From the NCBI GenBank assembly GCA_945956935.1, contig CAMFJD010000005.1, positions 23,630 to 87,629 of the forward strand: DNA of 64,000 nucleotides, in the 5' to 3' direction. The position numbers and the translations under genes are program-made. The stretch's first letter is position 1, and each line of letters begins with the position of its first letter. The stretch comes from an uncultured Bacillota bacterium (GTDB lineage Bacteria; Bacillota_I; Bacilli_A; Culicoidibacterales; ZOR0006). This document shows positions 18,183-37,562 of this stretch, one piece after another. A model generated the notes under the pieces. That model searched no databases. It saw nothing but the letters and a program-made list of their open reading frames with translations, and was not told the origin of the DNA.

Positions 18183-20414
18183 ATGGGACAGATTTATTTT
18201 GAAGCGGGGAGTCAACAATTTCATATTCAAGGGGAAAATAGTAGCTATATTATGCATATATTGCCATCAGGTGAGTTAGGACACTTATATTATGGAAAAA
18301 GAATTGAGCATCAAGCAGATTTTAGTCAACAATTTGCACCATATAATTATGGAATGAGTCGAGATATTTTCCCACTAGATGACAGTGCGGCACTTGATTT
18401 TGTTGCATTAGAGTATCCAACATATGGTACATCTGATTTTCGTCAACCTGCGATAGAAGTGCGACAATGTAACGGAAGTCGCATTGTAAAATTTGTGTAT
18501 GAATCACATCAAATCGAAAAAAACAAGCAACCGATTGAGGCGATGCCAAGCGCATTTGGAACAGATGAGACAGTTATTACGCTAACGATTTATTTAACGG
18601 ATGCAGTCACGAAATTACGTTTAGCACTGAGTTACTCACTTTTTATGACGGGTGATGTCATAACACGCCATGCAAAAATTGAAAATAATGGTGTGGAATC
18701 AGTTCAGTTATTACGATTTTTAAGTATGAATATCGATTTTGATACAAAGGCATACGATATGATGACATTTACAGGAAGTTGGATTCGTGAACGTGAACTT
18801 GAAGTGGCACCATTACGTCGTGGTATTCAAAGTATTTCAAGTTCACGCGGTGCAAGCAGTGCAACAGCGAATCCGTTTTTTGTTTTAAAGGGGCATCATA
18901 CAACAGATTTTCACGGAGAGGCATATGGATTTAATTTGATGTATAGTGGGAATCATGTTGGTCAAGTTGAAGTGACTCCCTATGATCAAGCACGTGTTCA
19001 ACAAGGAGTAAATTACTTTGATTTTAATTGGGAGTTAGCACCAAATACCTCATTTCAATCACCAGAGGTAGCTATTGTATATACCGCAGATGGATTGAAT
19101 GATTTGACACAAACGTATCACGATTTTTATCGCGAACATATGATTAATCAATACTGGGTAAAAAAAGAACGACCAATTTTGATTAACAACTGGGAGGCGA
19201 CGTATTTTGATTTTGATGAAACAAAATTATTGGAATTAGCAAAAAAAGCAAAAGCAGTAGGAGTTGAATTGTTTGTTCTAGATGATGGTTGGTTTGGACA
19301 TCGAGATAGTGATAATAGTTCACTAGGTGATTGGTACTATGATCCAAAAAAATTACCATATGGTTTGAAGCATCTCGTTGATCAAATTACTGACCTAGGG
19401 CTACAGTTTGGTCTTTGGATTGAACCAGAGATGGTATCACCAGATAGTGATTTGTATCGCTCACATCCTGATTGGATTATTTGTGTAAGCGATCGAACGC
19501 CAACTCAAGGAAGAAATCAATATGTTCTCGATTTTACGAATAACGAAGTTGTCGATACAGTGTATGAAATGATTGCAAAAGTTATTCGGGAAAGTGGTGA
19601 TATTAGTTACATCAAATGGGATTGGAATCGTCCACTGACTGAAATTGGTTCATTACAGTTACCGCCACAAAAACAGCAAGAAGTCGCTCATCGCTATGTA
19701 CTTGGATTATATCGTTTTTATAACCATTTAATGAATGATTTTCCACATCTTTTAGTTGAAGGGTGTGCATCTGGTGGTTCACGCTTTGATGGTGGTATTT
19801 TAGCATATTCACCACAAATTTGGGCAAGTGATGATAGTGATGCAGTTGAACGTTTGAAAATTCAATATGGAACGTCATTTTGCTATCCTTTATCAACAAT
19901 TGGTGCTCATGTATCTGCGTCACCAAATCATCAAGTTCATCGAACAACAAGTTTAAAGATGCGAGGTGATGTTGCCTTTTTTGGAATTTTTGGTTATGAA
20001 CTAGATTTAACGATGTTAAGTGAAGGAGAGCTCACAGAAATTGCGGCACAAATTACTATGTATAAATCATATCGACAGCTAATCATCACTGGTGATTTTA
20101 GTCGCATTTTAAGTCCATACGATAGCAATGAGACAGCTTGGTCAGTTGTTGATAAATCAAAAACAAAAGCGATAGTTGGTTATTATCGAACACTCGCTCC
20201 TGCTTACAAATTACCAACACGAATCAAAATTCCACAACTTCAACCAGAGATGATTTATACGTTAAAGGGTACTAAACGAACATATCGTGGGGATGAACTC
20301 ATGAATTGGGGGATTGAGTTGAATTTGGTGCTGTTTGAAGAACTCGGCATATTAGGACAAATGTCAGGAGACCATGTATCACTTATTTTAGCATTTGATT
20401 GTATAACAAGATAA
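18183..20414 (+). CDS. Alpha-galactosidase, GH36
   Basis: NNWEATYFDF, LDDGWF, FGLWIEPEMVS, IKWDWNR (nucleophile), CASGGSRFD and WASDDSD (acid/base); no signal peptide. Confidence 0.95.
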   Translation: MGQIYFEAGSQQFHIQGENSSYIMHILPSGELGHLYYGKRIEHQADFSQQFAPYNYGMSRDIFPLDDSAALDFVALEYPTYGTSDFRQPAIEVRQCNGSRIVKFVYESHQIEKNKQPIEAMPSAFGTDETVITLTIYLTDAVTKLRLALSYSLFMTGDVITRHAKIENNGVESVQLLRFLSMNIDFDTKAYDMMTFTGSWIRERELEVAPLRRGIQSISSSRGASSATANPFFVLKGHHTTDFHGEAYGFNLMYSGNHVGQVEVTPYDQARVQQGVNYFDFNWELAPNTSFQSPEVAIVYTADGLNDLTQTYHDFYREHMINQYWVKKERPILINNWEATYFDFDETKLLELAKKAKAVGVELFVLDDGWFGHRDSDNSSLGDWYYDPKKLPYGLKHLVDQITDLGLQFGLWIEPEMVSPDSDLYRSHPDWIICVSDRTPTQGRNQYVLDFTNNEVVDTVYEMIAKVIRESGDISYIKWDWNRPLTEIGSLQLPPQKQQEVAHRYVLGLYRFYNHLMNDFPHLLVEGCASGGSRFDGGILAYSPQIWASDDSDAVERLKIQYGTSFCYPLSTIGAHVSASPNHQVHRTTSLKMRGDVAFFGIFGYELDLTMLSEGELTEIAAQITMYKSYRQLIITGDFSRILSPYDSNETAWSVVDKSKTKAIVGYYRTLAPAYKLPTRIKIPQLQPEMIYTLKGTKRTYRGDELMNWGIELNLVLFEELGILGQMSGDHVSLILAFDCITR

Positions 20415-20529: not shown

Positions 20530-20563
20530 GAAAGAATAGAGTTTTTGGAAAAGGATGATAAAT

Positions 20564-21268
20564 ATGGCATCAGCATATAAAAAAATTGCCGAAAGTATTA
20601 TTTGTGACTTGAAGGCTGGTAAATACCATGAAACAAAAAAATTACCGAAAGAAGAAGAATTGATTCAACAGTATGGTGTGAGTCGAACAACAATCCGTAA
20701 ATCAATTAATATTTTGGTCAATAAAGGATTCGTATATCAAGTACAAGGAAGTGGGATTTTCGTACGTGAAGCTGCACTACAAGATTATGTTAGCCTTGAA
20801 AATGTAAAAGGTTTAACACGTGATTTCCCAACAAAGCAAGTAGAAGCAAAGCTATTATCATTAGAAGTTATTGATGCTGATGAAGAGTTAGCAGAAGCAA
20901 TGCAGTGTGAAGTTGGGACAAAAATTTATTATTTGCAGCGACTACGTAGTGTAAGTGGGGACAAATTTGCACTAGAGTACTCATACTTTAACAAAAATAT
21001 TATTCCGTATTTAAGTGAGGAGATTATTAAGTCATCAATTTATAGTTATATTATCGACGATTTGAAATTAACGATTGGATTCGCTGATAAAATTATTACA
21101 GCAACAAAATTATCAGCAAATGAAGCACAATTACTTGAATTAGAATTAGGTGATCCAGCCCTCACTTTAAGTAGTACTGTTTTTTTAAGTAATGGAACAA
21201 TTTTTGAAGTTTCAAAATCTGTTCATCATTACAAGAATGCGAAATTGCTCAAATTAGCAACATTTTAG
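20564..21268 (+). CDS. GntR/HutC-subfamily (UTRA) transcriptional regulator, GmuR-like
   Basis: wHTH LPKEEEL..YGVSRTTIRKSI..QGSGIFV plus UTRA domain; start after SD AAGGA (alternative ATG at 20555). Confidence 0.9.
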   Translation: MASAYKKIAESIICDLKAGKYHETKKLPKEEELIQQYGVSRTTIRKSINILVNKGFVYQVQGSGIFVREAALQDYVSLENVKGLTRDFPTKQVEAKLLSLEVIDADEELAEAMQCEVGTKIYYLQRLRSVSGDKFALEYSYFNKNIIPYLSEEIIKSSIYSYIIDDLKLTIGFADKIITATKLSANEAQLLELELGDPALTLSSTVFLSNGTIFEVSKSVHHYKNAKLLKLATF

Positions 21269-21439
21269 GTATATCAAACTTTGATTGGCACATAACATTT
21301 TGTTATGATAAAAAAAATATAATGATTAGAAAGTCAAACTACTTATAGGTTTTTTGGCTTTTTTTTGGTTTATTTAACAAGAAGAGTGACTATTTATTAT
21401 AAAAAAAGAAAAAAACAGCAGTTTTCGAAAAAAACAAAA

Positions 21440-21477
21440 AGAAAACGCTTGCACATGAGAGGGCGCTTATGTATAAT
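21440..21477 (+). promoter_or_regulatory. Promoter of the ABC operon with cre-like site overlapping the -35
   Basis: AGAAAACGCTTGCA at 21440-21453; TTGCAC, 17 nt, TATAAT at 21472-21477. Confidence 0.65.
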
Positions 21478-21594
21478 CTAATTGTGGAGATTGGTATCCA
21501 TCAATTTATTAAATAAACATATATAGGATATGTCAAAATAAAATGAAGTGAGACCAACTTTATAAAATTACTTTTTGAAAAAGGGAGAATAACA

Positions 21595-23018: not shown

Positions 23019-23936
23019 ATGTTAGGAGTAAAAGAGCAGACGCTCGCCTATCCAAAAACAAAAACAAGTCGAATGAGTGCAACAACGAAAAAAAGAATAC
23101 TTATTTTTAGTTTCTTAATTGTACCAATTATCCATTTATTAATTTTCTCGTATGTACCAATTATTACAAACTTTTTCTTAAGTTTTACAAATTATAATGG
23201 GGTATCAACACCAACGTTTATCGGATTCGATAACTATGTGCGATTATTTACCGATCCACAGTACATCCAAATGTTTAAAAATTGTTTATGGTATATGTTG
23301 ATGTCGATACCACAACTTGTTTTCTCATTTGCGTTAGCAATCTTTGTAAACGGAAAATTCCGCGGATTACAATTGTTTAAGGGGATTGCAATTATCCCAT
23401 ATTTATTAAATGGTGTTATTGTTTCAACAATTTTTATTATTTTCTTCAACAACACTGGAACATTAAATATGTTGTTGGGAGCATTAGGATTAGAAGGATT
23501 AACAACAAACTGGTTACAAAACTTAGATACAGTGAATCCGGCAATTGCATCAATTTCAATCTGGCGTTATTATGGAATGAACTTTATCATGTTTTTTGGA
23601 GCGTTACAGACAATTCCCAAAGATTTGTATGAAGCAGCAGCGATGGATGGTTGCAATAAATGGCAAGAAATCCGTTATATTGCTGTACCGGCAATAAAAA
23701 AAGTGCTGTATATCAATTTGATTTTAAGTATTTCTGGATCGATCCAAGTGTTCGAATTACCTTATATTATGATGAATGGTGCGAACGGAACGATGACACC
23801 GGTTATTCAAATCCAACAAAGTGCCTTCCAAGATGATCGCATTGGGTTTGCTGCAGCATTATCGATGCTTGTGTTTGTTATCGTCATTATCGCAATTGGT
23901 ATTCAAAAATTAGTAACAAAGGAGCGTTCAGCATGA
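23019..23936 (+). CDS. Carbohydrate ABC transporter permease (MalF/UgpA-like)
   Basis: FIGFDNY and EAA loop DLYEAAAMDG; start after SD GGGGGAG. Confidence 0.92.
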   Translation: MLGVKEQTLAYPKTKTSRMSATTKKRILIFSFLIVPIIHLLIFSYVPIITNFFLSFTNYNGVSTPTFIGFDNYVRLFTDPQYIQMFKNCLWYMLMSIPQLVFSFALAIFVNGKFRGLQLFKGIAIIPYLLNGVIVSTIFIIFFNNTGTLNMLLGALGLEGLTTNWLQNLDTVNPAIASISIWRYYGMNFIMFFGALQTIPKDLYEAAAMDGCNKWQEIRYIAVPAIKKVLYINLILSISGSIQVFELPYIMMNGANGTMTPVIQIQQSAFQDDRIGFAAALSMLVFVIVIIAIGIQKLVTKERSA

Positions 23937-24757
23937 TAAAAGAATCAAAAGGGTTTAAACTCATTCGGGCAATATTTTTGATTAGTGCAGCTCTCTTTGT
24001 TATTGTTCCACTAATTCCACTTGTATTTATGGCTTTTAAGACAGGGACTGAATATGCATCGACAGGTGTATTTACAGCACCACAATCATTTTTGAATTTT
24101 TATAACTTTATGTATGCAATTAATGTTGGAAAGCTTGGTGAGGCATTAATGAATACTGCGATTATTTTAGCTGTGTCACTGACAGTTCAAGTGTTATTTA
24201 CAACTATGGTATCGTATGTACTTCACCGGTTTGATTTTAAACTAAAAAAATTAGTAACATTTTTATTTACGATGACGATGTTTATTCCTGTTGTAACAAC
24301 ACAAGTTGTTGTTTTTGAAATCATTTATAGTATTGGACTTGTGAACACAATTTGGTCTGTAATTATTCTTTATTCAGGTGTAGGGATAGTCGGTATTTAT
24401 ATTATGTTAAATTTACTTGATTCAATTTCTAAAGATCTTGATGAGTCAGCCTTAATTGATGGAGCGAGTTATTTTACGATTTATCGTAAAATCATTTTTC
24501 CACTTCTAAAACCAGCAACAACAACTATGTTAATTTTAAATGGTATCGGTTTATATAACGATTTCTACATCCCAAATATTTATTTAAATAAATCAACACA
24601 GACATTTACAGTTGCTTTATATAAATTTTTTGGTTCAATGTCAACTCCGTTTGAAATTGTTGCTGCAGCAATTTTACTTGGGGTGATTCCGATTATGATT
24701 GTGTATCTATTCATGCAGAAATATATCTACTATGGTTTAGCAGGAGCAGTGAAGTAA
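23933..24757 (+). CDS. Carbohydrate ABC transporter permease (MalG/UgpE-like)
   Basis: EAA loop DLDESALIDGAS..IFPLLKP; ATGA overlap with the upstream permease. Confidence 0.92.
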   Translation: MIKESKGFKLIRAIFLISAALFVIVPLIPLVFMAFKTGTEYASTGVFTAPQSFLNFYNFMYAINVGKLGEALMNTAIILAVSLTVQVLFTTMVSYVLHRFDFKLKKLVTFLFTMTMFIPVVTTQVVVFEIIYSIGLVNTIWSVIILYSGVGIVGIYIMLNLLDSISKDLDESALIDGASYFTIYRKIIFPLLKPATTTMLILNGIGLYNDFYIPNIYLNKSTQTFTVALYKFFGSMSTPFEIVAAAILLGVIPIMIVYLFMQKYIYYGLAGAVK

Positions 24758-24758
24758 T

Positions 24759-25364
24759 ATGATTCATTCCAATTTCTACAAATTTCTAGGATGGATTCAT
24801 GTCACAGTCGTTTTTTCACTTCTTTTCTCAATTTTATCACTAGCTAGTGCAGGATTTTTATTCCTGCCTCTACTAGCGGTTGGCTTTGAGTTAAGCAAAG
24901 AAATCATTGAACGTGGATTTGATCCGCATGTATCGGTCGTAAAGTATGTGTATATGCGACTGAAACTGCATATTCGTTTGTTCCGTTTCAACGCTGTTTA
25001 CATTGTTTTACTACTAAATGGGATTGGAACATTACTCGGCATTTTTACACAACAATCGATGATTATGTATAGTTGTTCAGTTCTTGCTGTACTTGCATTT
25101 ATTTTCTTGATTTATATTGCATTTTATGCAACGTGGATTCAATCGAGTTTTCAACTTATCGATGTGTTCATCTTTATGTTTTATAAGTTACAGTATGTAC
25201 TTGTTCTCTTTGTTTTTTTTGTCAGTTGTGTTTATTTCAGTCAAAGTATAATTTTTCTAGCTTTTATTTTTTTAAATTTCTTAGCTATTTTATTCGTATC
25301 TGTACTGTTAAATAGTACGAGTGTACGATATTGTCACACAATTTTGCAAAAAGAGGAGATATAA
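24759..25364 (+). CDS. Membrane protein, YesL/DUF624-like accessory protein of sugar ABC operons
   Basis: 201 aa, about 5 TM, directly after the permeases; family call rests mostly on position and topology. Confidence 0.55.
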   Translation: MIHSNFYKFLGWIHVTVVFSLLFSILSLASAGFLFLPLLAVGFELSKEIIERGFDPHVSVVKYVYMRLKLHIRLFRFNAVYIVLLLNGIGTLLGIFTQQSMIMYSCSVLAVLAFIFLIYIAFYATWIQSSFQLIDVFIFMFYKLQYVLVLFVFFVSCVYFSQSIIFLAFIFLNFLAILFVSVLLNSTSVRYCHTILQKEEI

Positions 25365-26299
25365 TGAAATATATTAAAGGATTTACATGGGGTTGGAATT
25401 ATCAAACAGGTGACTGGTTGACACAAGCCGCACTAGATAGTATTGATGCGATGATTGAACGTACGAATTGTGATATAGTAATTGTACCGATACCAGCAAA
25501 GCAACAGACAGCACAAAGTACACAAGTCATGTACGAGTGTGATGATGTACCAACTCGAGCAGAAATAGTACGCATTTTGGAATATTTACAGTCCAAAAAT
25601 ATGCGTATTATATTAAAGGCAGTTGTTGATTGTTTAGATGGTACGTGGCGAGCATATATTAATTTTTTAACACCTGATGTTATTTGTGAACCGAAATGGT
25701 CAGAGTGGTTTGAAAGTTATACTAAATATGTGAGCTATGTGAGCGAATTTGCGACAAAATATGAAGCGGAGATGTTGATGATTGGTTGTGAAATGGTCTG
25801 TGCGGATAATCAAGCAGAGTATTGGCGCCAATTGATTAGGCATATACGAAAACAATACAATGGATTGTTGACATATAATTGCGATAAATACCAAGAAGAT
25901 CGTGTGACATGGTGGGATGCTCTTGATGTGATATCAAGTAGTGGATACTATCCAGTTGGTACGTGGGATGCGCAATTACAGCGGATACAAACAATTGTCG
26001 AACAGTATCAAAAACCATTTTTCTTTGCTGAAGCTGGTTGTCCTAGTAGAACTGGAAGTGAGCATTGTCCAAATGATTGGCAGTGGTTGAGTGAAGTGAA
26101 TGAAAAAGCACAAGATTGTTATTATACCGAATTATTTGAAACAACCAAAAACTATCCATTTGTGAAAGGATTTGCATTTTGGGATTGGCCCATCCGTCTT
26201 TACTCATTAGAACAAGTAACACAAAATGATGATTATAGTGTCTATGGAAAACAAGCCGAAAAGCGAATTGCGATTGCTTACAGTAGTAAAGGAGAATAG
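25364..26299 (+). CDS. Intracellular GH113 beta-mannanase/mannosidase
   Basis: IKGFTWGW, DGTWRA, IGCEM (acid/base Glu), TYNCDKYQED, SSSGYYP and FFAEAG (nucleophile Glu); no signal peptide; TAATG overlap. Confidence 0.88.
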   Translation: MKYIKGFTWGWNYQTGDWLTQAALDSIDAMIERTNCDIVIVPIPAKQQTAQSTQVMYECDDVPTRAEIVRILEYLQSKNMRIILKAVVDCLDGTWRAYINFLTPDVICEPKWSEWFESYTKYVSYVSEFATKYEAEMLMIGCEMVCADNQAEYWRQLIRHIRKQYNGLLTYNCDKYQEDRVTWWDALDVISSSGYYPVGTWDAQLQRIQTIVEQYQKPFFFAEAGCPSRTGSEHCPNDWQWLSEVNEKAQDCYYTELFETTKNYPFVKGFAFWDWPIRLYSLEQVTQNDDYSVYGKQAEKRIAIAYSSKGE

Positions 26300-26300
26300 A

Positions 26301-27374
26301 ATGATACAACAAAAATATTGGCACATACGTTCAGAGCTGTCTTACGTCAAGGAAGCAATTCAACGAAAAAAAATCAAAATAGGTTTTCTTGGCGGTTCGA
26401 TAACTGAACAATCTGCGAAACATAATTATGCTGATCTTTTCACAGTACAATTGAAGTGTGATTTTCCAGATGTGTATGTAGAAACACAAAATTTAGGGAT
26501 AGGTGCCACTTGCTCAACATTAGGCTGTCTATTAGCAAAAGAAGTGCTCAATCATGAATTGGATCTAGTGGTTGTTGAGTACGCTGTGAATGATGATGGT
26601 ATGGATGCGCAATTGCGAATGCGAGCACGTGAAGGAATTATACAAATAATTCAAGAGCGAATGCAGGCAGATATAGTCTTTGTATATACATATAAAGAAA
26701 CGATGTATCCATATTATGCTAAAATAAAATCAACAGAACTTCCCCCTTCAGTTGCAGATTTTGAACAACTTGCACAGCATTATCGAATTAATAGTTGTAA
26801 TGTTGGTCAATATGCATTTGATCAAATGCAAGCAGGTTTAGTACGATTCGAAGAGTGGCTCCCTGATAACTTACACCCAACATATCGAGGGTCATCGTTG
26901 TATGCGAGTTGCTTGATGATGGCAATGATTGATGGGATTACGTCAGAAATACCGAAAAATATAATGGAACAAAGGTCATTAACAGCTCATTTTGGTTCAT
27001 TGCAAACGATTCCATTTGAACAGATGACATTGCAGGGGCCATGGGTTGTGAAGTCAACACATGAAAAATGGATAGATAAATTTTTGTATACGACGAGTAT
27101 ACAATCAACGTTGATTTTTGAAGTAGAAGCAAGTGTTGTGATGATCGGTACGTTATTTGGTGAAACAATGAGTGATTTGTATTATTCGGTGAATGATAGC
27201 GATGAAATATTACTCCCACGTTATCATGAATCGTGGGCAGGAGAACAAGGTTGGTATCGTGAGGATGTATTGTACTGCGGTGAACACCAACATATTCGGG
27301 TAACAATTCGGTGCCAAAAAAATCCCGAACGTCTTGGAACAACAACAATTATCCCACATATTTATTACATATGA
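26301..27374 (+). CDS. SGNH/GDSL esterase with N-terminal catalytic domain and C-terminal beta-domain (CE17-like candidate mannan acetylesterase)
   Basis: FLGGSIT (Ser), GIGAT, EYAVND and DNLHP; start after SD AAAGGAG. Confidence 0.75.
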   Translation: MIQQKYWHIRSELSYVKEAIQRKKIKIGFLGGSITEQSAKHNYADLFTVQLKCDFPDVYVETQNLGIGATCSTLGCLLAKEVLNHELDLVVVEYAVNDDGMDAQLRMRAREGIIQIIQERMQADIVFVYTYKETMYPYYAKIKSTELPPSVADFEQLAQHYRINSCNVGQYAFDQMQAGLVRFEEWLPDNLHPTYRGSSLYASCLMMAMIDGITSEIPKNIMEQRSLTAHFGSLQTIPFEQMTLQGPWVVKSTHEKWIDKFLYTTSIQSTLIFEVEASVVMIGTLFGETMSDLYYSVNDSDEILLPRYHESWAGEQGWYREDVLYCGEHQHIRVTIRCQKNPERLGTTTIIPHIYYI

Positions 27375-28357
27375 TCTTATTTGATGGAATATACGCACCG
27401 AATATTCAAGCTATCATCCATAGAGATGGTCATGAATTACTTTCACGTTATGAAACGGATGTTGTCACACAGTTAGGTCATGATATTCCTTTTCAAATGT
27501 GTGCTGTTGAGTTGTTACTTGTTCCAAAGACGCAAGTAACGATAACGATTTCAAGTCATCATTCATGGGTACCGGCAAAATGTTTGATTTTTGCTGGAGA
27601 ACATTCATATAGCAGTGAACACTTGATTAGTGATCGGACAACATTGATTATTGATCCTCCAAGTCTCTTTGGGACTCCATTGACTACCCTTTCAAATGAG
27701 TTTCCAAAGCATGTTGTCCGTATCTTATTATATGGGGATCAATTTGAGATTCATCAAGTGACAGGGAGCTATCGTGCACCGTATGAATATGAATTACCTA
27801 AGCAAAAGATGATGATATATGGGACATCAATTAGTCAAGGAATTGGTGCAACTGGAGTGGAACAGACATATGCATGGCAATTGTCGAGAATGCTTGATGC
27901 ATTACTGTATAATTATGCATTGAGTGGGAAATGTTTTATTGAACGATATGTGGTTGACGCAATCGTGCAAAGTGAACAATTTGATATAATTATCTATGAA
28001 TGCTCAGTAAATATGTTAGGTTCGGGCTATTCAATTGAAACATACGAGCAACGCTTGCAGTATTTATTTGAACAGACGAGTATTCATCAACCAAAAGCAC
28101 GTGTATTTGTAACGAGTATTCTTCCATATTTTGGTGATTACGGGTATGTGAATGAATCGGATTGTTGCGTTGCAAGTGCAAATCAATATCGCCAAACAGC
28201 AAAACGACTCAGTAGCGTGTATCCAAACATAACATACATGGAGCCTATTCATTTACTTGACGAAAATAATTTAAGCGTAGATTTGATTCATCCGAGTAAT
28301 TTTGGTATGCAACAAATAGCACGCACAATAGCAAGATATATTAAAGGAGCGAAATAA
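27371..28357 (+). CDS. SGNH/GDSL esterase with N-terminal beta-domain and C-terminal catalytic domain (CE2-like candidate acetylesterase)
   Basis: YGTSISQG (Ser), ALSG, SVN and DLIHP; ATGA overlap with the previous gene. Confidence 0.75.
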   Translation: MILFDGIYAPNIQAIIHRDGHELLSRYETDVVTQLGHDIPFQMCAVELLLVPKTQVTITISSHHSWVPAKCLIFAGEHSYSSEHLISDRTTLIIDPPSLFGTPLTTLSNEFPKHVVRILLYGDQFEIHQVTGSYRAPYEYELPKQKMMIYGTSISQGIGATGVEQTYAWQLSRMLDALLYNYALSGKCFIERYVVDAIVQSEQFDIIIYECSVNMLGSGYSIETYEQRLQYLFEQTSIHQPKARVFVTSILPYFGDYGYVNESDCCVASANQYRQTAKRLSSVYPNITYMEPIHLLDENNLSVDLIHPSNFGMQQIARTIARYIKGAK

Positions 28358-28359
28358 TT

Positions 28360-29241
28360 ATGCATATTTGTTTTGATATTGGTGGTAGTTCAATCAAAAT
28401 GGCAATCATTACACCAGAAAATGAGTTTTTATTAAAAAAAACAGTGCCGGTAGTTGATAATATTCAAGTAATATACCAGATAATGAATGTATTTGTTGAT
28501 GAAGCAAAAACTGCTTTCCCAACTGAAGCGTTTGTCGGAATTGCAATTTCAGCACCGGGTGCAGTTGATACAAAAACAGGAGTAATTGGTGGTGCTTCTG
28601 CACTTGAATCAATTCATGGTCCGAATTTTAAAAGTGATTTATTTGAATTAACACATTTACCGGTCGCAATTGAAAATGATGCAAACTGTGCTGCTTTGGC
28701 AGAACTTTACTATGGTGCTGCAAAAGGGTGTCAAGACATTTGTACGATGGTTATTGGAAGTGGCGTTGGTGGCACAATTGTGAAGTCACAGAAAGTCCAT
28801 CATGGACATAATTTACATGGTGGAGAATTTGGGTATATGCTTGTACATACTGGAGAAGATGGGATTCAATCATTAAGTAATGTTGGATCAACGCGCGCAC
28901 TTGTAGAACATGCTCAAAAAATTGATGCAACGATTGAGAATGGTGAACAAGTATTTGAACTTGCGAAAACAGATGAACGATTTCAAGCAGTGGTTGATTC
29001 ATTTTATTTTTATGTTGCACTAGGTGCAATTAATGTACAGTATACATATGATCCTGAATGTATCGTTTTTGGTGGAGCTGTGTCAAAACAAGCAGATTTT
29101 ATTCAACGAGTTCAAGAACAAATCCAAGCAATTATTAAACGTCCGGGTATGAGTCACACGATTGTACCGACGTGTGTTACTTGCCATTTCTATAATGATG
29201 CTAATTTACTTGGAGCAAAAGTAAATTTTTCACAACAATAA
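28360..29241 (+). CDS. ROK-family sugar kinase, BglK (beta-glucoside kinase)-like
   Basis: FDIGGSSIK, ENDANCAALAE, GSGVGG and GEFGYM; lacks the CxCGxxGC zinc motif. Confidence 0.85.
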   Translation: MHICFDIGGSSIKMAIITPENEFLLKKTVPVVDNIQVIYQIMNVFVDEAKTAFPTEAFVGIAISAPGAVDTKTGVIGGASALESIHGPNFKSDLFELTHLPVAIENDANCAALAELYYGAAKGCQDICTMVIGSGVGGTIVKSQKVHHGHNLHGGEFGYMLVHTGEDGIQSLSNVGSTRALVEHAQKIDATIENGEQVFELAKTDERFQAVVDSFYFYVALGAINVQYTYDPECIVFGGAVSKQADFIQRVQEQIQAIIKRPGMSHTIVPTCVTCHFYNDANLLGAKVNFSQQ

Positions 29242-29422: not shown

Positions 29423-30136
29423 ATGTTGAAAATAGCGATTTGCGATGATGAAGTGATTTTTATTGATATGTATAAGAAAGTAATCAAAAAAATTCAAGAT
29501 GAGCATCAATACAACTTAGATATACATACGTATCGCTGTGGTGAGGATCTCATCGATGATATGATTATTCATGAAAAACAGTTTGATCTTATTTTTTTAG
29601 ATATCGTTATGGGAACATTGAATGGTATTGAAACAGCAAGAGAAATTAGAAAAATGTCTCAAATGGTACCAATTGTATTTTTAACAAGTAGCAAAGAATA
29701 TGCATTAGATAGTTATGAAATACGTGCATTTAATTATATTATGAAAAATTCATCACAATTAGAAGCACAGATGCTTGAGGCTATCGTTGCTTGTTGTCAA
29801 AAAAAAGTGACATATATTACGATACAAAATAAATTCATAATTGAAAAAATTGACGTAAACGATATTGTGTATATAGAATCGAATAGACGTAAAATTATTG
29901 TTAAAACAAAAAGTGATATGTATGAAACATATGAGAAATTAGATACTATTTTCGCAAAATTATCACCATTTGGCTTTGTTCGAACACATCGAAGTTATAT
30001 TGTGAATTTGGCATATATTCAAAAAATTACTCCAAAAGAAATTATGACAATATTTGGAGATAGTGTAATTGTTAGTCGGAGTAATGCGGATAGTGTCAAA
30101 ATGAAATTTATGGAATACTTACAGCAACTAAAATAA
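29423..30136 (+). CDS. LytTR-family response regulator
   Basis: ICDDE, FLDIVM (phospho-Asp), NGIETA, YIMK; LytTR domain YIES..RK...FVRTHRSYIVNL. Confidence 0.93.
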   Translation: MLKIAICDDEVIFIDMYKKVIKKIQDEHQYNLDIHTYRCGEDLIDDMIIHEKQFDLIFLDIVMGTLNGIETAREIRKMSQMVPIVFLTSSKEYALDSYEIRAFNYIMKNSSQLEAQMLEAIVACCQKKVTYITIQNKFIIEKIDVNDIVYIESNRRKIIVKTKSDMYETYEKLDTIFAKLSPFGFVRTHRSYIVNLAYIQKITPKEIMTIFGDSVIVSRSNADSVKMKFMEYLQQLK

Positions 30137-30155
30137 CTTGATGTGTAATTCAGTG

Positions 30156-30177
30156 AAAGGGTGAGAATCCCTTTTTT
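30156..30177 (+). terminator. Weak intrinsic terminator between the regulator and kinase genes
   Basis: AAAGGG-TGAGAAT-CCCTTT followed by a T run. Confidence 0.5.
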
Positions 30178-30317
30178 ATTTGCATTATTGATGATAAAAC
30201 ATAGGAAATAGTCAGTTTCTTATTATTTTAAAATGTATATCATCTATACTCGTAAAGATAGTTTATATTATAATAGGTAAACTAAAACTTTAGTTGTGAA
30301 GGAATGAGTGAGTAAAG

Positions 30318-32234
30318 ATGAATCGACTGTATGTAAGTATTACTATTGTTTTATGTTTGTTATTTGCTTTTTTACTAGATGGCAGTGAACGACAGCAGCA
30401 ATTTCAAATTTCATATGAAGAATATTTGAGCGATATAAGAACTCAGCATGCTGGTGATGAAATAGCGATTATTAACACGTTAACAGAAGAAATTAACAAT
30501 CCGGATAATAGTAATGAATTTATTGGGATAAATTTGCTTGCACGTCAAGAATGCTACTATTTATGGTCAGATACAGAAAATTTTTTTAAATACTTAAATC
30601 AAACAGAAAAGCATCTGGAAAAGTATGGAATGAATGAAGAACGGTTAGATTTATACTCTATGGTTTCAAGTCGTTATCTAGGTAATGAACAATACCAAGA
30701 GGCATATATTTTTATTGCCAAAGGTGAATATTTGGCAAAACAGTTATATGAAAAAAATTCAGATCCTGAAATGCTTTCGACATTAATCGCTATTAAATAT
30801 TTAAAAACGGTGACGGCTTTAGATATGGGATTAAAGCAACAAGCAGATAATGTGTTTGCTGAAGCAGAAATGTTGCGTCAGACGAGTAATATTCGAGACC
30901 GTGTCGATATTTTCAGTAATATAATAACATACTATCGCACCAAGAATGATATGGTGTCAGTAGAAGTATATACTGAAAAACTTATTGCCCTAATTGAAGA
31001 AGTAGACCCTAATTTAGAACGATATGGTGGAACGTATGTACAGACGAAAGTAATCCAAGCAGAGAGTTATTTAGCCTTAGACAAAATAGATGCAATGATG
31101 ACTATTGTTAATTGGTTAAAAACAGAGGAAGATTTAACATTCAAAACAAATTATCGTCGATATGAAATATATCAATTGTATGCGAAAATATATCGCTACT
31201 ATGGAATGTCTGAAGCGTATGTTGATTATTTAGAGAAGGCATATTATGAAATTAAGGATAGTAAAAAAAGTAGTGAAAAACTAAAAGTTGTTCAATTGAT
31301 AATTGCTGATTTAGAACAAAAAAATCAAACTGATAAATTGACACAATGGTATGAAATCGAGCGTGAGATGTATCGTCAAAAAGAGGATGTAGAAGATACG
31401 AGATATCTCTTAAATCAATTATTGGATACTGATTTACAGAATGCGAAATATCAGATTGAAATTTTAAATTTAGAAAAAAAACAATCTCAATATATTGCAA
31501 TTGCATTGCTATTACTGATTGCTATTGTTATTGGGTTGAGTATTATTGAGCGTCGACATAAACGTTTGCTAAAAGAAAATATTAATGTATTGAAACGAAA
31601 TCAAGTTATCAAAGAGCAATATTATGAAAATATTCGTCAAAATCATGCTGATATTCAAGCAATAAAACACGACATGAAAAATCATATGATTATTGTACAA
31701 CAATTGCTATTGTCAGGAGATAATCAGTCGTTACAAGAGTATATAAATACAATAACGAACAAACTCAATTATTCAGATGGAGACCTGTTAACGAATAATC
31801 AAATTGTCGATGCAATTGTTGGGAGTAAGCGTGATGTATGTGAACGAAAAGGAATTATATTTGAATGTCAAATCGAAATTCCAGAGAAACTTCCAATTGA
31901 TGAATTTGATGTATGTGTGATTTATGGGAATTTATTAGATAATGCAATTGAAGCATGCCAAGGTGATCAACAGAAAATGATTAATGGAATAATAAAGTTA
32001 AAAAATTTTGTGCGAGGTGATTATTTATTTTTATCGATAGAAAATACATATGATGGTGTGATTATCGAGCAAAATGGACAATTTATCACAAAAAAAAGCG
32101 ATAAACGCAATCATGGAATAGGGTTGAAAAGTGTACAAAGCACGATAGAGAAATATCAGGGTGATTATCGAGCATCATATACAGAAGAAATGTTTAGCGT
32201 TATGATTATGATTGATATTACAACAAGTTTATAA
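30318..32234 (+). CDS. GHKL (AgrC/VirS-like) sensor histidine kinase with a large helical-repeat extracytoplasmic domain
   Basis: N-terminal TM, about 370-aa helical region, second TM, H-box KHDMKNH, N-box GNLLDNAIEA, G-box HGIGLKSV. Confidence 0.88.
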   Translation: MNRLYVSITIVLCLLFAFLLDGSERQQQFQISYEEYLSDIRTQHAGDEIAIINTLTEEINNPDNSNEFIGINLLARQECYYLWSDTENFFKYLNQTEKHLEKYGMNEERLDLYSMVSSRYLGNEQYQEAYIFIAKGEYLAKQLYEKNSDPEMLSTLIAIKYLKTVTALDMGLKQQADNVFAEAEMLRQTSNIRDRVDIFSNIITYYRTKNDMVSVEVYTEKLIALIEEVDPNLERYGGTYVQTKVIQAESYLALDKIDAMMTIVNWLKTEEDLTFKTNYRRYEIYQLYAKIYRYYGMSEAYVDYLEKAYYEIKDSKKSSEKLKVVQLIIADLEQKNQTDKLTQWYEIEREMYRQKEDVEDTRYLLNQLLDTDLQNAKYQIEILNLEKKQSQYIAIALLLLIAIVIGLSIIERRHKRLLKENINVLKRNQVIKEQYYENIRQNHADIQAIKHDMKNHMIIVQQLLLSGDNQSLQEYINTITNKLNYSDGDLLTNNQIVDAIVGSKRDVCERKGIIFECQIEIPEKLPIDEFDVCVIYGNLLDNAIEACQGDQQKMINGIIKLKNFVRGDYLFLSIENTYDGVIIEQNGQFITKKSDKRNHGIGLKSVQSTIEKYQGDYRASYTEEMFSVMIMIDITTSL

Positions 32235-32239
32235 AAAGA

Positions 32240-32306
32240 CAATAAATGACAAAAAATAAACCGTTGGTGACATATATCTAAAGAAAATAGCGGAATATGC
32301 TATACT
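32240..32306 (+). promoter_or_regulatory. Promoter with 21-bp-spaced direct repeats (candidate LytTR site)
   Basis: TGACA at 32247 and 32268; extended TG-n-TATACT at 32301-32306; no consensus -35. Confidence 0.4.
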
Positions 32307-32377
32307 ATGTCTCTCAAAATGATACGCGATACTCTCGAGGAACGAATACTTTATGTACTAAGAAAGGTGATAAAAAA

Positions 32378-33562
32378 ATGGAACATACATTATTTAGCCA
32401 AATATTGGATCATCAAGATAATGGAATTATTATTATGACAACGGAACGTGAAATTGTCTATGTGAATCACCGAGTACAGAAAGTATTGGGAGATGGTGTG
32501 CATCAGGTGTTTGGTAAATATTTGAATTGTCAATGGGTTCATGTGGAATCTAGTTGCTGCGCGTCACTGTATCAGTGTCAAAAATGCGTCATTAACAAAG
32601 GAATACATTATGTACTAGAAACAAAAGGCTCTAAAAAATTGCATAATGTTCAGATTGATAAGAATAATTTGGAATTAGCTGTAACAATGAAAATTTCTTT
32701 ACTGAATGAATACATTCTTATAGAATTATCTGAATTTCAAGTTATCAATTTTAAAACAGAATTTTTGATTCGTTTAGCAGATAAATCTAACGATATTATG
32801 TTCTTTAAAGATGAAGAGTTGAAATATGTTTATGTTAACCAAACATATGCAAATTTTTATAATAAAGACAAAGAGTATCTTATTGGTAAAACGGATGAAG
32901 AGTTGATAAATGCTGGTTTGCTAAGTCGAGAACTATATGAACAATGTCGAATAGGTGATATCGAAGCATTAAAGTCTGGACATTATCATGATATTGAGGT
33001 GATGGGAGATCAATATTTTCGTGTGTCTAAAGAGAATATTGAGAATGGTGTACTTGGAATAGCTAGAAATATTACTGAGGAGATGAGTGCAATTCACCAA
33101 TCAGAAATCGATCAGCTGACTGGGGTATATAATCGCCACAAATTTGAACAGTCTATACGTACAATTTATGATGAACAGAACAGAAAATATGCTATTGCTG
33201 TAATAGATGTAGATGATTTAAGAGGATTAAACAATGAATATGGTCATTTAAAAGGTGATACCTATTTGAAAGCACTTGGGAAAATTTTCCAAGAGCAAAG
33301 ACATACAACGTTTTTTCGAATTGGTGGCGATGAGTTTGTTGGTCTTATTAATACAGACTGTATCGAACCTGATAAGGTGTTTAATTCAATAGTTAGTTCT
33401 TCATTATTATTAGGTTTTCAACCACAGTTAAGTGTTAGCGTAGGTGTGTCTCAATTTGATACAAATCTTTCATATGAGCAAAATTATGAATTAGCTGATC
33501 GGTTATTATATCAAGCTAAGTCTCAAGGAAAAAATGGTGTAATTATAGATATTAGTGACTAA
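32378..33562 (+). CDS. PAS-PAS-GGDEF diguanylate cyclase
   Basis: DQLTGVYNR, DVDDLRGLNNEYGHLKGD, RIGGDEF, SVGVS and ADRLLYQAKSQGKN; N-terminal PAS-like repeats; start after SD AAAGGTG. Confidence 0.9.
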   Translation: MEHTLFSQILDHQDNGIIIMTTEREIVYVNHRVQKVLGDGVHQVFGKYLNCQWVHVESSCCASLYQCQKCVINKGIHYVLETKGSKKLHNVQIDKNNLELAVTMKISLLNEYILIELSEFQVINFKTEFLIRLADKSNDIMFFKDEELKYVYVNQTYANFYNKDKEYLIGKTDEELINAGLLSRELYEQCRIGDIEALKSGHYHDIEVMGDQYFRVSKENIENGVLGIARNITEEMSAIHQSEIDQLTGVYNRHKFEQSIRTIYDEQNRKYAIAVIDVDDLRGLNNEYGHLKGDTYLKALGKIFQEQRHTTFFRIGGDEFVGLINTDCIEPDKVFNSIVSSSLLLGFQPQLSVSVGVSQFDTNLSYEQNYELADRLLYQAKSQGKNGVIIDISD

Positions 33563-33608
33563 AGTGACAATGCTATGCAACGAATGAGTGAATGAAGGAG
33601 AGAGATGT

Positions 33609-34832
33609 GTGAATAACTTATATCAAAATAGCAATAGGTATAAATTTATTGAAAAATTAAAAGAACGTACAGGTTATTATTTAGCGTGTATTGATATTGT
33701 AAATTTTAAAAATATAAATGAAAAACACTGTTTTTATAATGGAGATGTTATTCTATCACAGCTTATTAGTCGCATCGAATCATTGTCAAGTTTGAATTGT
33801 CCAGTTAGTGTGTGCCGTTATGAGAATGATATTATGATGATTATGATTGATACAACTTGTGAGCATACTGTATTTTCACTTCTTGATAAAATTGTGGAAC
33901 ATTCTTATAAATATGATGTTTCCTTTCGATGTGGATACAAGAAAATTGATACTTTCCAGAAAATTGAACATTTTTTAGAAAGTATTATCTATGTTATTAA
34001 ATACAAACGGTATATAGTCGAAAAAACGATTGATGAAACACATAAGTTAAATGAAGATATTGAAAAATATTTTGCAATTAAGCAAGATGTTATTATTAAT
34101 AATAAGGAAAATTTCCAATTGGTGTACCAACCAAAAATTGCTAATAAAGATAAATCAATTCATTCATGTGAAGTATTGAGTCGCTGGTGTCACCCAGAGA
34201 TAGGTCAAAGTATGCCGGATGAATTTTTGCCGATTATTAAACATGTTGATAAAGAGATTGAATTTGATCTAATTATTTTTGAAAAAGCGTGTCAAGAATT
34301 AAGTAATGAAGCGGCATTGACAGAAATATTTTCAATTAACATTTGTATTAAATCAATGTTATACGAGCAATTCGCAGCAAAAATTATTAAATATGTTGAA
34401 AAATATAATATGAATGCTGAAAATATAACTATCGAAATTTTAGAAGATATTTGTGAATATGATCAGGTAGAGTTGAGTAGAAATATTGAAATATTAAGTG
34501 AATACGGTTTTCGAATTTCAATTGATGATTTTGGAACGGGATATTCATCGTATTGTCGATTAGCTGCACTTGATTTTACCGAAGTGAAAATTCCACGAGA
34601 GTTTCTTTTATTAGACAATTATTTCTCAATAAAGAAAAATCGTCAGATATTATCGGGAATTGTAAGTATGTGTAAGGCACTCAATTGTAAAATTGTCATT
34701 GAGGGTGTTGAAACTCAAGAAAATGTACGACTGGCAGAAGACTTGGGAATTGATTATATTCAAGGGTATTACTATTCAAAACCATTGCCGAAAGAAGCGT
34801 ATATTCACTTTATTCAGAATTATACTGCATAA
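33609..34832 (+). CDS. EAL c-di-GMP phosphodiesterase with degenerate N-terminal GGDEF domain
   Basis: YQPKI, EVL, SINI, IEILE, DDFGTGYSS, EGVET and QGYYYSKP; GGDEF site reads YENDI; GTG start after AGGAG (alternative 33588). Confidence 0.88.
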   Translation: MNNLYQNSNRYKFIEKLKERTGYYLACIDIVNFKNINEKHCFYNGDVILSQLISRIESLSSLNCPVSVCRYENDIMMIMIDTTCEHTVFSLLDKIVEHSYKYDVSFRCGYKKIDTFQKIEHFLESIIYVIKYKRYIVEKTIDETHKLNEDIEKYFAIKQDVIINNKENFQLVYQPKIANKDKSIHSCEVLSRWCHPEIGQSMPDEFLPIIKHVDKEIEFDLIIFEKACQELSNEAALTEIFSINICIKSMLYEQFAAKIIKYVEKYNMNAENITIEILEDICEYDQVELSRNIEILSEYGFRISIDDFGTGYSSYCRLAALDFTEVKIPREFLLLDNYFSIKKNRQILSGIVSMCKALNCKIVIEGVETQENVRLAEDLGIDYIQGYYYSKPLPKEAYIHFIQNYTA

Positions 34833-34875: not shown

Positions 34876-34901
34876 ATTATTTTGAAAAAATAAATATTTT
34901 A

Positions 34902-34962
34902 TTGCAAAAACGCTTTCTTAGTAATATAATGAAAGTGTAGATTATTTGTGTACACAAATAAT
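34902..34962 (+). promoter_or_regulatory. GH1 promoter with cre-like site and a perfect 22-bp palindrome
   Basis: TTGCAA, 17 nt, TATAAT (34925-34930); cre-like CAAAAACGCTTTCT in the spacer; ATTATTTGTGTACACAAATAAT at 34941-34962. Confidence 0.7.
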
Positions 34963-35008: not shown

Positions 35009-36406
35009 ATGAAAGTAACTTTTCCAGAAGGTTTTTTATGGGGAGCAGCAACAAGCGGTATTCAATCAGAAGGTGGATTTGAAAAGAGTAATCCGTCAAT
35101 TTGGGAATTATGGTATGACAAAGAACCAGAACGTTTTTATCAACAAATTCCATGTGATGTTGTGTGTGATACATACCATCGTTATGAAGAAGATGCACGT
35201 TTAATGGCTGAAATTGGAATGAATAGTTTCCGCACATCAATTCAATGGGGGCGTCTTATTAAAAATTTAGAGACAAATGAAGTCGATGAAAAAGCGGTAG
35301 AATTCTACAATAATTATATTGATGCTTTACTTGACCAAGGGGTTGAACCAATTTTAGGATTGTACCATTTTGATATGCCAGCAGTGCTGCAAGAAACATA
35401 TGGTGGATTTGAAAGTAAGGAAGTTGTAGAAAAATTTGCTCAATATGCGAAGATTTGTTTTGAGCTATTTGGCGATCGTGTGAAAAAATGGTCAACTTTT
35501 AATGAACCAATTGTACCAGTTGAAGGTGGTTACTTATATGATTTCCATTATCCAAATAAAAAGGATGCACGTTTAGCAGTACTCGTGTCATATAATACTA
35601 TTTTAGCACATGCTAAAGCAGTCCATGCATACCGTGAAGTTGGTTGTAGTGGTGAAATTGGTGTGGTATTAAATTTAACACCATCATATACGTGCGATGA
35701 TCAACCACAAAATAAATTAGCAGCGTATTATGCTGATTTATTTTTTAATCGTTCGTTCCTAGATCCAATGGTGAAAGGTGAATTCCCACAAGACTTAGTA
35801 GACATTTTAAAAGCAGCAAATGTTTTACCAACAACTACAGCAGAAGAAATGACAACAATTAAGACTGCAACAATTGACTTTATGGGTGTGAATTATTATG
35901 TACCACGTCGTGTTCGTGCACGGACAACAGTCTATGATTTAGATTATTTTACTCCTGAAATGTTTTTTGAGTATTATATTGAAGAGAATGCACGTTTCAA
36001 TCCATTCCGTGATAATAATGAAATTAAGCCAGTTGCAATTTATGATATTGCTCAGAATATTAAAGAAAATTATGGAAATATTAAATGGTATTTATCAGAA
36101 ATCGGTATCGCTATGGATGTTGTGAGTGAAGGAGCAGTTCAAGCAGATGGACTTATCGATGATTCATTCCGTATTGCATTGCTAGAAGAGCATTTAGTGG
36201 AGTTATCAAAAGCAATTAGTGAAGGTGCAAATTGCTTTGGCGTACACAACTGGACATTTATCGATTGTTGGTCGTGGATTAATTCATTTAAACGTCGGTA
36301 TGGGTTTTATCGCCTTGATTTAGAAACACAGGAACGTCAAATGAAAAAATCAGGTGTATGGCACCGCGAATTAGCGAAGAATAACGGATTTATCTACGAA
36401 GGATAA
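35009..36406 (+). CDS. gmuD: GH1 6-phospho-beta-glycosidase, GmuD-like
   Basis: TFNEP (acid/base), LSEIG (nucleophile), phosphate-site WSWINSFKRRY; NEPIVPVEGGYLYDFHYPN and FFNRSFLDP.VKGEFP recalled as B. subtilis GmuD-like. Confidence 0.85.
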   Translation: MKVTFPEGFLWGAATSGIQSEGGFEKSNPSIWELWYDKEPERFYQQIPCDVVCDTYHRYEEDARLMAEIGMNSFRTSIQWGRLIKNLETNEVDEKAVEFYNNYIDALLDQGVEPILGLYHFDMPAVLQETYGGFESKEVVEKFAQYAKICFELFGDRVKKWSTFNEPIVPVEGGYLYDFHYPNKKDARLAVLVSYNTILAHAKAVHAYREVGCSGEIGVVLNLTPSYTCDDQPQNKLAAYYADLFFNRSFLDPMVKGEFPQDLVDILKAANVLPTTTAEEMTTIKTATIDFMGVNYYVPRRVRARTTVYDLDYFTPEMFFEYYIEENARFNPFRDNNEIKPVAIYDIAQNIKENYGNIKWYLSEIGIAMDVVSEGAVQADGLIDDSFRIALLEEHLVELSKAISEGANCFGVHNWTFIDCWSWINSFKRRYGFYRLDLETQERQMKKSGVWHRELAKNNGFIYEG

Positions 36407-37392: not shown

Positions 37393-37397
37393 CATTT

Positions 37398-37432
37398 AAA
37401 ATAGCGTTTTCACAAGAAAACGCTATTTTTTT
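37398..37432. terminator. Intrinsic terminator
   Basis: AAAATAGCGTTTTC-ACAA-GAAAACGCTATTTT perfect 14-bp stem plus T run. Confidence 0.8.
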
Positions 37433-37443
37433 GATTTTTTTAT

Positions 37444-37481
37444 AGAAAACGCTTGCTAAACACTTTGAAAAGGCATATACT
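37444..37481 (+). promoter_or_regulatory. EIIC-manA promoter with cre-like site over the -35
   Basis: AGAAAACGCTTGCT at 37444-37457; TTGCTA, 17 nt, TATACT at 37476-37481. Confidence 0.65.
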
Positions 37482-37562
37482 TTAAAAGTAATCTAATTGA
37501 GGTCTACAAATTAAGTAAAGATATATCAATTAGATAGATAGCACTATTTGGAGGGGGAGAAG

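Follow-up and report, generated by a model that had tools for sequence, protein, structure and literature searches.

Organization of the locus

We analysed a 64,000-nt stretch of contig CAMFJD010000005.1 (referred to as the window) from the genome of a fish-gut bacterium, which is 99.8% complete, and focused on a gene encoding a sugar kinase of the ROK family, here named ROK-1. This gene starts 2 nt past the stop codon of the second of two SGNH-type esterase genes, in a cluster with an ATP-binding cassette (ABC) importer and a glycoside hydrolase (GH) of family GH113. Loci of other genomes are designated below by L numbers and contigs of this genome by C numbers. The features of the cluster are the following:

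18183..20414, + strand: GH36 alpha-galactosidase; the orthologue in L083/L090 carries Glyco_hydro_36N/Melibiase/36C
20555..21268, + strand: GntR/HutC-family regulator; best NCBIfam match TreR-like, 142 bits
21595..22953, + strand: lipoprotein solute-binding protein (SBP) of the ABC importer, first operon gene; Pfam SBP_bac_1/8, LVGC lipobox
23019..24757, + strand: two ABC permeases; the L083/L084 orthologues carry BPD_transp_1
24759..25364, + strand: 201-aa polytopic membrane protein between the second permease and GH113; no Pfam match
25364..26299, + strand: cytoplasmic GH113 beta-mannanase / exo-oligomannosidase; PF22612, 372 bits; no signal peptide
26226..28357, + strand: two SGNH/GDSL esterases; Lipase_GDSL_2, Lipase_GDSL_3
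28360..29241, + strand: ROK-1, the gene under study; zinc-less ROK sugar kinase, 293 aa
29254..29281, + strand: intrinsic terminator closing the ABC/GH113/ROK-1 operon; 12-pair stem followed by a T-run

The identification of GH113 is secure, the closest solved structure being AxMan113A (5YLH, 343 bits), and both esterases are probable acetyl-mannan esterases. The esterase pair is kept in L083-L087, and L083, L084 and L085 have an equally sized protein at the position of the 201-aa membrane protein. A promoter-like site for the SBP gene was found at 21450-21477. Since this strong terminator follows ROK-1 and no comparable + strand terminator was detected between this promoter (~21450-21477) and the end of ROK-1, ROK-1 closes the SBP/permease/GH113/esterase operon. 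Read data were checked for RNA support and contained DNA-like contigs only, with no usable signal of expression or co-transcription; these contigs represent a strain ~98.5% identical, in which the gene order is unchanged.

A second catabolic module lies downstream, separated from the first by a block of signalling genes:

29423..34832, + strand: LytTR regulator, histidine kinase (HK), GGDEF and EAL genes, between both catabolic modules
35009..36406, + strand: SPy1599-type GH1 with a Ser/Lys/Tyr phosphate-binding signature; 4B3K, 435 bits
36481..37392, + strand: ROK-2, a second, hexokinase-like ROK kinase; best Protein Data Bank (PDB) match 3VOV, 130 bits
37548..38855, + strand: enzyme IIC (EIIC) of the lactose/cellobiose family of the phosphotransferase system (PTS), with no adjoining EIIB or EIIA; TIGR00359, 455 bits
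38889..39830, + strand: ManA, class I mannose-6-phosphate isomerase; TIGR00218, 148.5 bits (cutoff 116)

A first-pass annotation, made by reading the sequence alone, had placed the GH1 in the ROK-1 locus. The two genes do share the region but not an operon, as the GH1 gene lies 5.8 kb downstream of ROK-1, past the four-gene signalling cassette and two terminators, and has its own promoter. The signalling cassette is missing at the equivalent place in L084, L086 and L090 and is present in the ~98.5%-identical strain (runs X9 and X10). It seems to have arisen by an insertion or rearrangement particular to this lineage and is probably not part of the pathway.

ROK-2 is closest to 3VOV, a broad-specificity ROK hexokinase of T. 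thermophilus. It is not an orthologue of the B. subtilis fructokinase YdhR/GmuE (1XC3, only 42 bits). The names GmuD and GmuE were not retained for the window genes, as their homologue lists carry neither name and ROK-2 is clearly not YdhR-like. The interval 37392-37548 contains only a terminator and a promoter, both here and in the metagenome-assembled genome (MAG) L090, and holds an EIIB gene in ZOR0006 (L001) and L084. The whole genome encodes two stand-alone EIIB proteins and one EIIA, all on contig C1. Because the EIIB slot is empty and no EIIB or EIIA gene exists outside C1, the mannoside EIIC counts as an orphan, and the PTS route previously placed at the locus is locally incomplete, with EIIC standing alone and the EIIB of the relatives missing.

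Analysis of the promoter regions indicates that the SBP, GH1 and EIIC promoters (21430-21480, 34900-34960 and 37440-37500) each have a cre-like site, GAAAACGCTTGC or AAAACGCTTTC, that overlaps the -35 region; the SBP site carries GAAAACGCTTGC. This shared motif would correspond to general, non-specific catabolite control. We also detected a perfect 18-bp palindrome, TATTTGTGTACACAAATA, at 34943, immediately 3' of the -10 hexamer in the GH1 promoter-like site. Sequences like it lie upstream of GH1 in ZOR0006 and L084, and it is probably a GntR/HutC operator; the regulator of the window shares 74% identity with the GntR protein encoded directly upstream of GH1 in ZOR0006. The palindrome was not found upstream of the ABC operon, and a single GntR regulon for both modules could not be shown, since TATTTGTGTACACAAATA is confined to the GH1 promoter in the window. 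An 11-mer common to the SBP and EIIC leaders, TAATCTAATTG, occurs four times in the genome and was treated as possibly due to chance.

ROK-1 is a zinc-less ROK kinase

The ROK-1 open reading frame is real, with an ATG start, an AGGAG ribosome-binding site and a product of 293 aa that is matched over its full length by Pfam ROK (140 bits). An N-terminal helix-turn-helix (HTH) or other DNA-binding domain is absent, so that ROK-1 is a ROK protein of the kinase type and not a repressor. The motifs of the family are intact, namely DIGGS at the N-terminus, ENDANC with the catalytic Asp107, GSGVGG and HGGEFGYM, and 50 columns are invariant over 40 homologues, including D6, G8, G9 and E105-N106-D107. 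There is no Cys from residue 129 to the DPEC motif near residue 233, and the CxCGxxGC zinc motif (the CxCGxxGCxE site) is consequently missing. The segment after GEFGYM is ~7 residues shorter than in the canonical glucokinase of the genome (GlcK, on contig C23; TIGR00744, 301 bits). ROK-1 itself was rejected as a TIGR00744 glucokinase, as it scores 126 bits against a cutoff of 260 and lacks both ExGH and the zinc site. Thus, the description of the last operon gene as a ROK kinase with GEFGYM and without CxCGxxGC is confirmed by the open reading frame, the motifs, the alignment and the terminator.

The best PDB matches of ROK-1 are 2GUP (156 bits) and 4HTL (131 bits), and 5NCK scores 107 bits. 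Its AlphaFold2 model, with a predicted local distance difference test (pLDDT) value of 93.3, matches the same three folds, 2GUP of S. pneumoniae with a template-modelling (TM) score of 0.88 and both the zinc-less F. nucleatum NanK (5NCK) and the Listeria beta-glucoside kinase BglK (4HTL) with 0.85. The fold search on this predicted model confirms the ROK fold and does not resolve the acceptor site. From its sequence, ROK-1 is predicted to be a cytoplasmic ATP-dependent sugar 6-kinase of a large uncharacterised zinc-less ROK clade.

ROK-1 is coupled to a phospho-type GH1 in related genomes

The window GH1 aligns over its whole length with SPy1599 (4B3K/4B3L), which was described as a 6-phospho-beta-glucosidase (Stepper et al. 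2013). The Ser, Lys and Tyr positions of the window enzyme (CWSWINSFKRRYG) and of SPy1599 (GWSWLNAYKNRYG) coincide, as proposed in the first-pass annotation, and the longer form of the signature reads WSWINSFKRRYG and WSWLNAYKNRYG, respectively. The features of the 6-phospho-beta-glycosidase subgroup are all found: the Ser/Lys/Tyr pocket replaces FEW...RFG, the acid/base lies in NEP at residue 165 and the nucleophile Glu lies in SEIG. Of 120 GH1 homologues with at least 62% identity, 119 retain the phosphate signature. The catalytic nucleophile motif, which is near-universally TENG in GH1, is here SEIG at residue 363, a variant kept in L084 and L086, and (A/S)EIG occurs in 84 of the 85 homologues (Vibrio, Yersinia, Cetobacterium and others), among those 120, in which the scan located the motif. 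This variant might relate to manno-configured substrates.

The five closest ROK-1 orthologues form a clade with a support of 95 in the Shimodaira-Hasegawa approximate likelihood ratio test (SH-aLRT), and all five have GH1 in the same cluster despite differing gene order. The orthologue lies directly downstream of GH1 in L001 and L084 and shares a cluster with it in L086 and L090/L083, so the proposed coupling of ROK-1 to a phospho-type GH1 is borne out. The gene orders are as follows:

ZOR0006 (L001): GntR-GH1-ROK1-ROK2-EIIB-EIIC-ManA
L084: GntR-SBP-permease-permease-membrane protein-GH113-SGNH-SGNH-GH1-ROK1-ROK2-EIIB-EIIC-ManA
L086: GH113-GH1-x-SGNH-SGNH-ROK1-EIIB-EIIC-EIIA
L090/L083 (Culicoidibacterales MAG): GH1-ROK2-EIIC-ManA-GH36-GntR-ABC-GH113-SGNH-SGNH-ROK1
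L088 (next relative): ROK-GH1-GH30-SBP-permease

No true GH113 gene was found in the ZOR0006 genome. In the closest MAG, fragments of IS605 OrfB/TnpB lie between the GH36 and GntR genes (L083, 1570-2012; L090, 8678-9120), which fits a locus reshuffled by mobile elements.

The coupling also recurs in the wider family. Among the 90 rows of our family tree, 17 have a GH1 gene within 700 bp, with at least nine changes on the tree, and the GH1 enzymes of these loci are all of the phospho-type. In eight of the 17 loci, such as L088 and that of Neobacillus with the order SBP-permease-permease-HK-response regulator-GH1-ROK, the surrounding 10 kb include ABC genes but no part of a PTS. As these loci combine ABC genes, a phospho-type GH1 and a ROK kinase without a PTS, phosphorylated substrate would most simply come from a glycoside kinase there. 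Additionally, the Bacillaceae loci L060, L061, L064, L066, L069 and L080 share the order SBP-permease-permease-HK-AraC-type response regulator-GH1-ROK with no PTS nearby, L060 and L066 having two ROK genes, and in their GH1 enzymes the phosphate motif takes a third form, SDNVSPMNAFKNRYG.

The genome lacks the known enzymes for the last glycosidic bonds

Clade-1 GH113 enzymes stop at M1+M2 or M2+M3 and are inactive on p-nitrophenyl-mannoside (PMC9032380), and in F. prausnitzii the oligosaccharide left after GH113 passes to GH130 enzymes and an epimerase (PMC8262883). Mannobiose had been named as a GH113 product at this locus, and these characterised enzymes indeed leave it. We searched the whole genome for enzyme families that could act at this point. 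No GH130, no mannobiose 2-epimerase (PF07221) and no GH3, GH5 or GH26 member was found in it. The only GH2 (~600 aa) adjoins uronate genes and looks like a glucuronidase, and all seven GH1 enzymes are of the phospho-type, with Ser...Lys...RYG for the FEW...RFG of non-phospho enzymes. The suggestion that GH130 phosphorylases are bypassed is thus supported, since GH130 is truly missing, as are all the other searched non-phospho enzymes able to finish mannobiose or glucosyl-mannose. Judged by gene content, the gap at the disaccharide step, with neither a phosphorylase nor a non-phospho glycosidase, is real.

A kinase-dependent route and its alternatives

These data can be arranged in a pathway. 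The ABC system would import acetylated galacto(gluco)manno-oligosaccharides, from which the two SGNH esterases and GH36 would remove the acetyl and galactosyl groups. GH113 would then shorten the chain to mannose and a beta-1,4-linked di- or trisaccharide stub (mannobiose, Man-Glc or Glc-Man), which characterised GH113 enzymes do not cleave. ROK-1 would phosphorylate O6 of the non-reducing residue of the stub, and maybe free hexose as well, and the phospho-type GH1 would cleave the product to hexose-6-phosphate and hexose. The free hexose would be phosphorylated by ROK-2 or by the canonical GlcK, and ManA would convert mannose-6-phosphate to fructose-6-phosphate. A disaccharide-accepting ROK-1 that feeds the phospho-type GH1, and perhaps also accepts hexoses, is the best single explanation because of the coupling of ROK-1 to GH1 and the lack of an alternative enzyme for the last glycosidic bonds, and we put its chances at about even. 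The identities of the genes, the operon structure, the missing enzymes and the conserved linkage of ROK-1 with GH1 are observed, and the acceptor of the kinase and the manno-specificity and phosphate dependence of GH1 are inferred. The surplus of hexose kinases also counts for this route, as a canonical GlcK and the hexokinase-like ROK-2 are already present. Of the route as first proposed, the gap, the linkage and the recurrence of ABC/phospho-GH1/zinc-less ROK modules without a PTS hold, whereas the identity with BglK and the use of the zinc-less motif as a mark of specificity do not.

The combination of a kinase with a phospho-glycosidase is a classical idea, known from the beta-glucoside kinase of Aerobacter/Klebsiella and from BglK, which uses ATP for the 6-phosphorylation of beta-glycosides and is not known to act on free glucose. 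Free beta-glucosides were converted in vitro by the K. pneumoniae BglK acting with a 6-phospho-beta-glucosidase (PMC13264166), and BglK tolerates an N-acetyl group at C2 (PMC10570127). Nothing relevant on a mannobiose kinase, or on a 6-phospho-beta-mannosidase paired with a ROK kinase, was found in the searchable literature. The same is true of a kinase route for mannan oligosaccharides imported and processed by ABC/GH113 systems without GH130.

Several observations weigh against a disaccharide acceptor. To place ROK-1 in the family, we used a maximum-likelihood tree of 90 ROK proteins, in which the zinc-less clade comprises 86 rows and BglK is represented by the Listeria protein (4HTL). The latter is the first branch outside the 86-member clade, on a long branch (SH-aLRT 87), and shares 32.6% identity with ROK-1. 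The best NCBIfam match of ROK-1 is BglK (NF042998), at 146.1 bits, below the equivalog cutoff of 550 bits. Every other clade member tested, including one from a housekeeping context, likewise has BglK as its best NCBIfam match at 150-203 bits, and none reaches 550. BglK is, by sequence, the nearest characterised relative of the clade, and the designation "BglK-like" is adequate at the superfamily level and as a best match, but the score, the identity (33%) and the position of 4HTL outside the clade in the ROK phylogeny speak against BglK itself. ROK-1 does have BglK-type features, as it has no HTH, lacks the Cys zinc motif and carries GEFGYM for ExGH, the same motif as 4HTL. However, the zinc-less GEFGYM had been taken as a sign of a BglK-type substrate, and it does not mark disaccharide specificity, since the whole family has it, housekeeping-context members included. 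The sugar loop reads SALESIHGPN in ROK-1 and GAIRRFDNFN in 4HTL, and the alignment revealed no consistent residue pattern separating GH1-adjacent family members from the rest. On the side of GH1, the phosphate dependence of the window subfamily is deduced from the motif and from 4B3K, and its nucleophile motif is the unusual SEIG.

The strongest alternative is that ROK-1 is a plain hexose 6-kinase (a mannokinase or glucomannokinase), acting on mannose freed by GH113 and, in relatives with only a PTS, on hexose freed by GH1. The phospho-type GH1 would then serve only PTS-imported disaccharides, and leftover mannobiose would be cut by this GH113 or lost. We regard this as a serious possibility that falls short of an even chance. 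A mannose kinase serving GH113 suits the window equally well: mannose is the main product of GH113 (PMC9032380), ManA is encoded in the locus, and a mannokinase at the end of the operon would be expected on any model. The closest solved structure, SP_2142 of S. pneumoniae (2GUP), has been annotated no further than as a putative sugar kinase, and its locus releases mannose (PMC5215778); the zinc-less ROK fold includes monosaccharide kinases such as the F. nucleatum NanK. Furthermore, a kinase of the ROK-1 type is the only one in L086, which has no ROK-2. The contexts of other family members point in the same direction. About 23 members from Erysipelotrichaceae and Coprobacillaceae (including L012, L018, L041, L051 and L059) lie in a housekeeping string of aroB, aroA, pheA, aroK, ROK, a 229-aa protein, thyA, folA and an acyltransferase, and five such genomes have no match above the TIGR00744 cutoff for a ROK glucokinase; because of this context and this lack, some members may be ordinary hexokinases. 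In addition, a family member occurs in about 15 clostridial loci together with a GH38-like alpha-mannosidase, an SBP and a ROK-2-like kinase, and the surrounding 10 kb contain no GH1 there. A plain hexose kinase would nevertheless leave the ABC-only loci with phospho-type GH1 and ROK without a source of phosphorylated substrate, and the mannobiose and glucose-containing stubs without an enzyme in this genome, and it would provide three hexokinase-type enzymes (GlcK, ROK-2 and ROK-1) for two hexoses.

It is very improbable that ROK-1 acts on a sugar unrelated to GH1 (N-acetylmannosamine, fructose or galactose) or serves, without catalysis, as a sensor or partner protein: it weakly resembles NanK (77 and 65 bits to the models and the 5NCK match) and GH36 frees galactose, but genes for sialic acid or amino sugars are absent from the locus, galactose is usually the substrate of the GHMP kinase GalK, and the catalytic motifs of ROK-1 are all intact, with the invariant columns and no DNA-binding domain.

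Zinc-less paralogues in the same genome

Two other zinc-less ROK paralogues were observed in this genome. One is the last gene of a beta-glucoside cluster on contig C1 (156998-169709) with a BglF-like EIIBCA, four phospho-type GH1 enzymes, RpiR, EIIB and EIIC, a layout that we take to match the BglK locus of Listeria, lmo2761-2766. The other ends a cluster of an ABC system, a 1044-aa GH38-like protein and an SBP on contig C13 (1-14600), where it adjoins a divergent SPy1599-type phospho-GH1 and a 918-aa lipoprotein (compare L057). In the tree, the C13 paralogue groups with SP_2142 (2GUP) and ROK-1 does not. The C13 arrangement suggests the same logic of kinase and phospho-type GH1 for Man-beta-1,4-N-acetylglucosamine (Man-beta-1,4-GlcNAc) of the N-glycan core, a step for which published streptococcal models have no enzyme (PMC6160142).

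A broader possibility is that the zinc-less ROK clade provides a general route independent of PTS and phosphorylases, in which ABC-imported beta-disaccharides would be phosphorylated at O6' and cut by a phospho-type GH1. Candidate substrates would be two disaccharides of plant mannan, mannobiose and glucosyl-mannose, and the Man-beta-1,4-GlcNAc unit of N-glycan cores, and loci of the contig C13, ZOR0006 and S. pyogenes type (GH38, ABC importer, ROK and SPy1599-type GH1) would work alike. We consider this generalization less likely than not.

Comparison with known systems and implications

Like ROK-1, BglK (K. pneumoniae; L. monocytogenes Lmo2764, 4HTL; EC 2.7.1.85) has ~290-300 aa, no HTH, GEFGYM and no Cys zinc loop, and is associated in genomes with a 6-phospho-type GH1, but its context is a beta-glucoside PTS operon, whereas ROK-1 belongs to a mannan locus that encodes an ABC importer and GH113. 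SP_2142, crystallised with sucrose, shows 35% identity to ROK-1, is also zinc-less with GGEFGYM, and belongs to an N-glycan carbohydrate-processing locus for ABC-imported mannose-containing glycans; unlike the window, the pneumococcal locus has no GH1.

The mannan loci of R. intestinalis and F. prausnitzii (La Rosa 2019; Lindstad 2021, PMC8262883) share with the window an ABC importer with a lipoprotein SBP, a cytoplasmic GH113, GH36 and two SGNH-type esterases. As in F. prausnitzii, there is no secreted endo-mannanase in the window, and therefore cross-feeding is implied. In contrast to these loci, the window lacks both GH130 enzymes, the mannobiose 2-epimerase and the GH3 glucosidases, and has instead a phospho-type GH1, two ROK kinases, EIIC and ManA. 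The gmuBACDREFG operon of B. subtilis likewise brings together a lactose/cellobiose-family EIIC, a phospho-type GH1, a GntR regulator, a ROK kinase and a mannose-6-phosphate isomerase. The window differs from it in having no local EIIB or EIIA and no GH26, in a ROK-2 that is not GmuE, in the additional zinc-less kinase and in the fusion with an ABC/GH113 module.

The use of beta-mannan by gut Firmicutes is now explained in two ways, by GH130 phosphorylases or by PTS uptake followed by GmuD. This genome and at least three other lineages join the ABC/GH113/esterase front end of the first route to the phospho-GH1/ManA back end of the second. If ROK-1 is only a mannokinase, the locus is ordinary and the question becomes which enzyme cuts mannobiose here. 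If it accepts disaccharides, ROK kinases would gain a class of substrates new to them, a role would be at hand for the hundreds of genes annotated as "ROK family protein" that adjoin phospho-type GH1 genes in loci without a PTS, and the degradation of fibre and host glycans could be reconstructed better in metabolic models. The route would also have energetic consequences, since it costs one ATP per disaccharide, whereas phosphorolysis conserves the bond energy. Should the zinc-less clade as a whole work in this way, Firmicutes would have a third means of completing beta-mannan breakdown, and the beta-mannosidase reaction that the N-glycan pathways of streptococci and clostridia lack would be provided.

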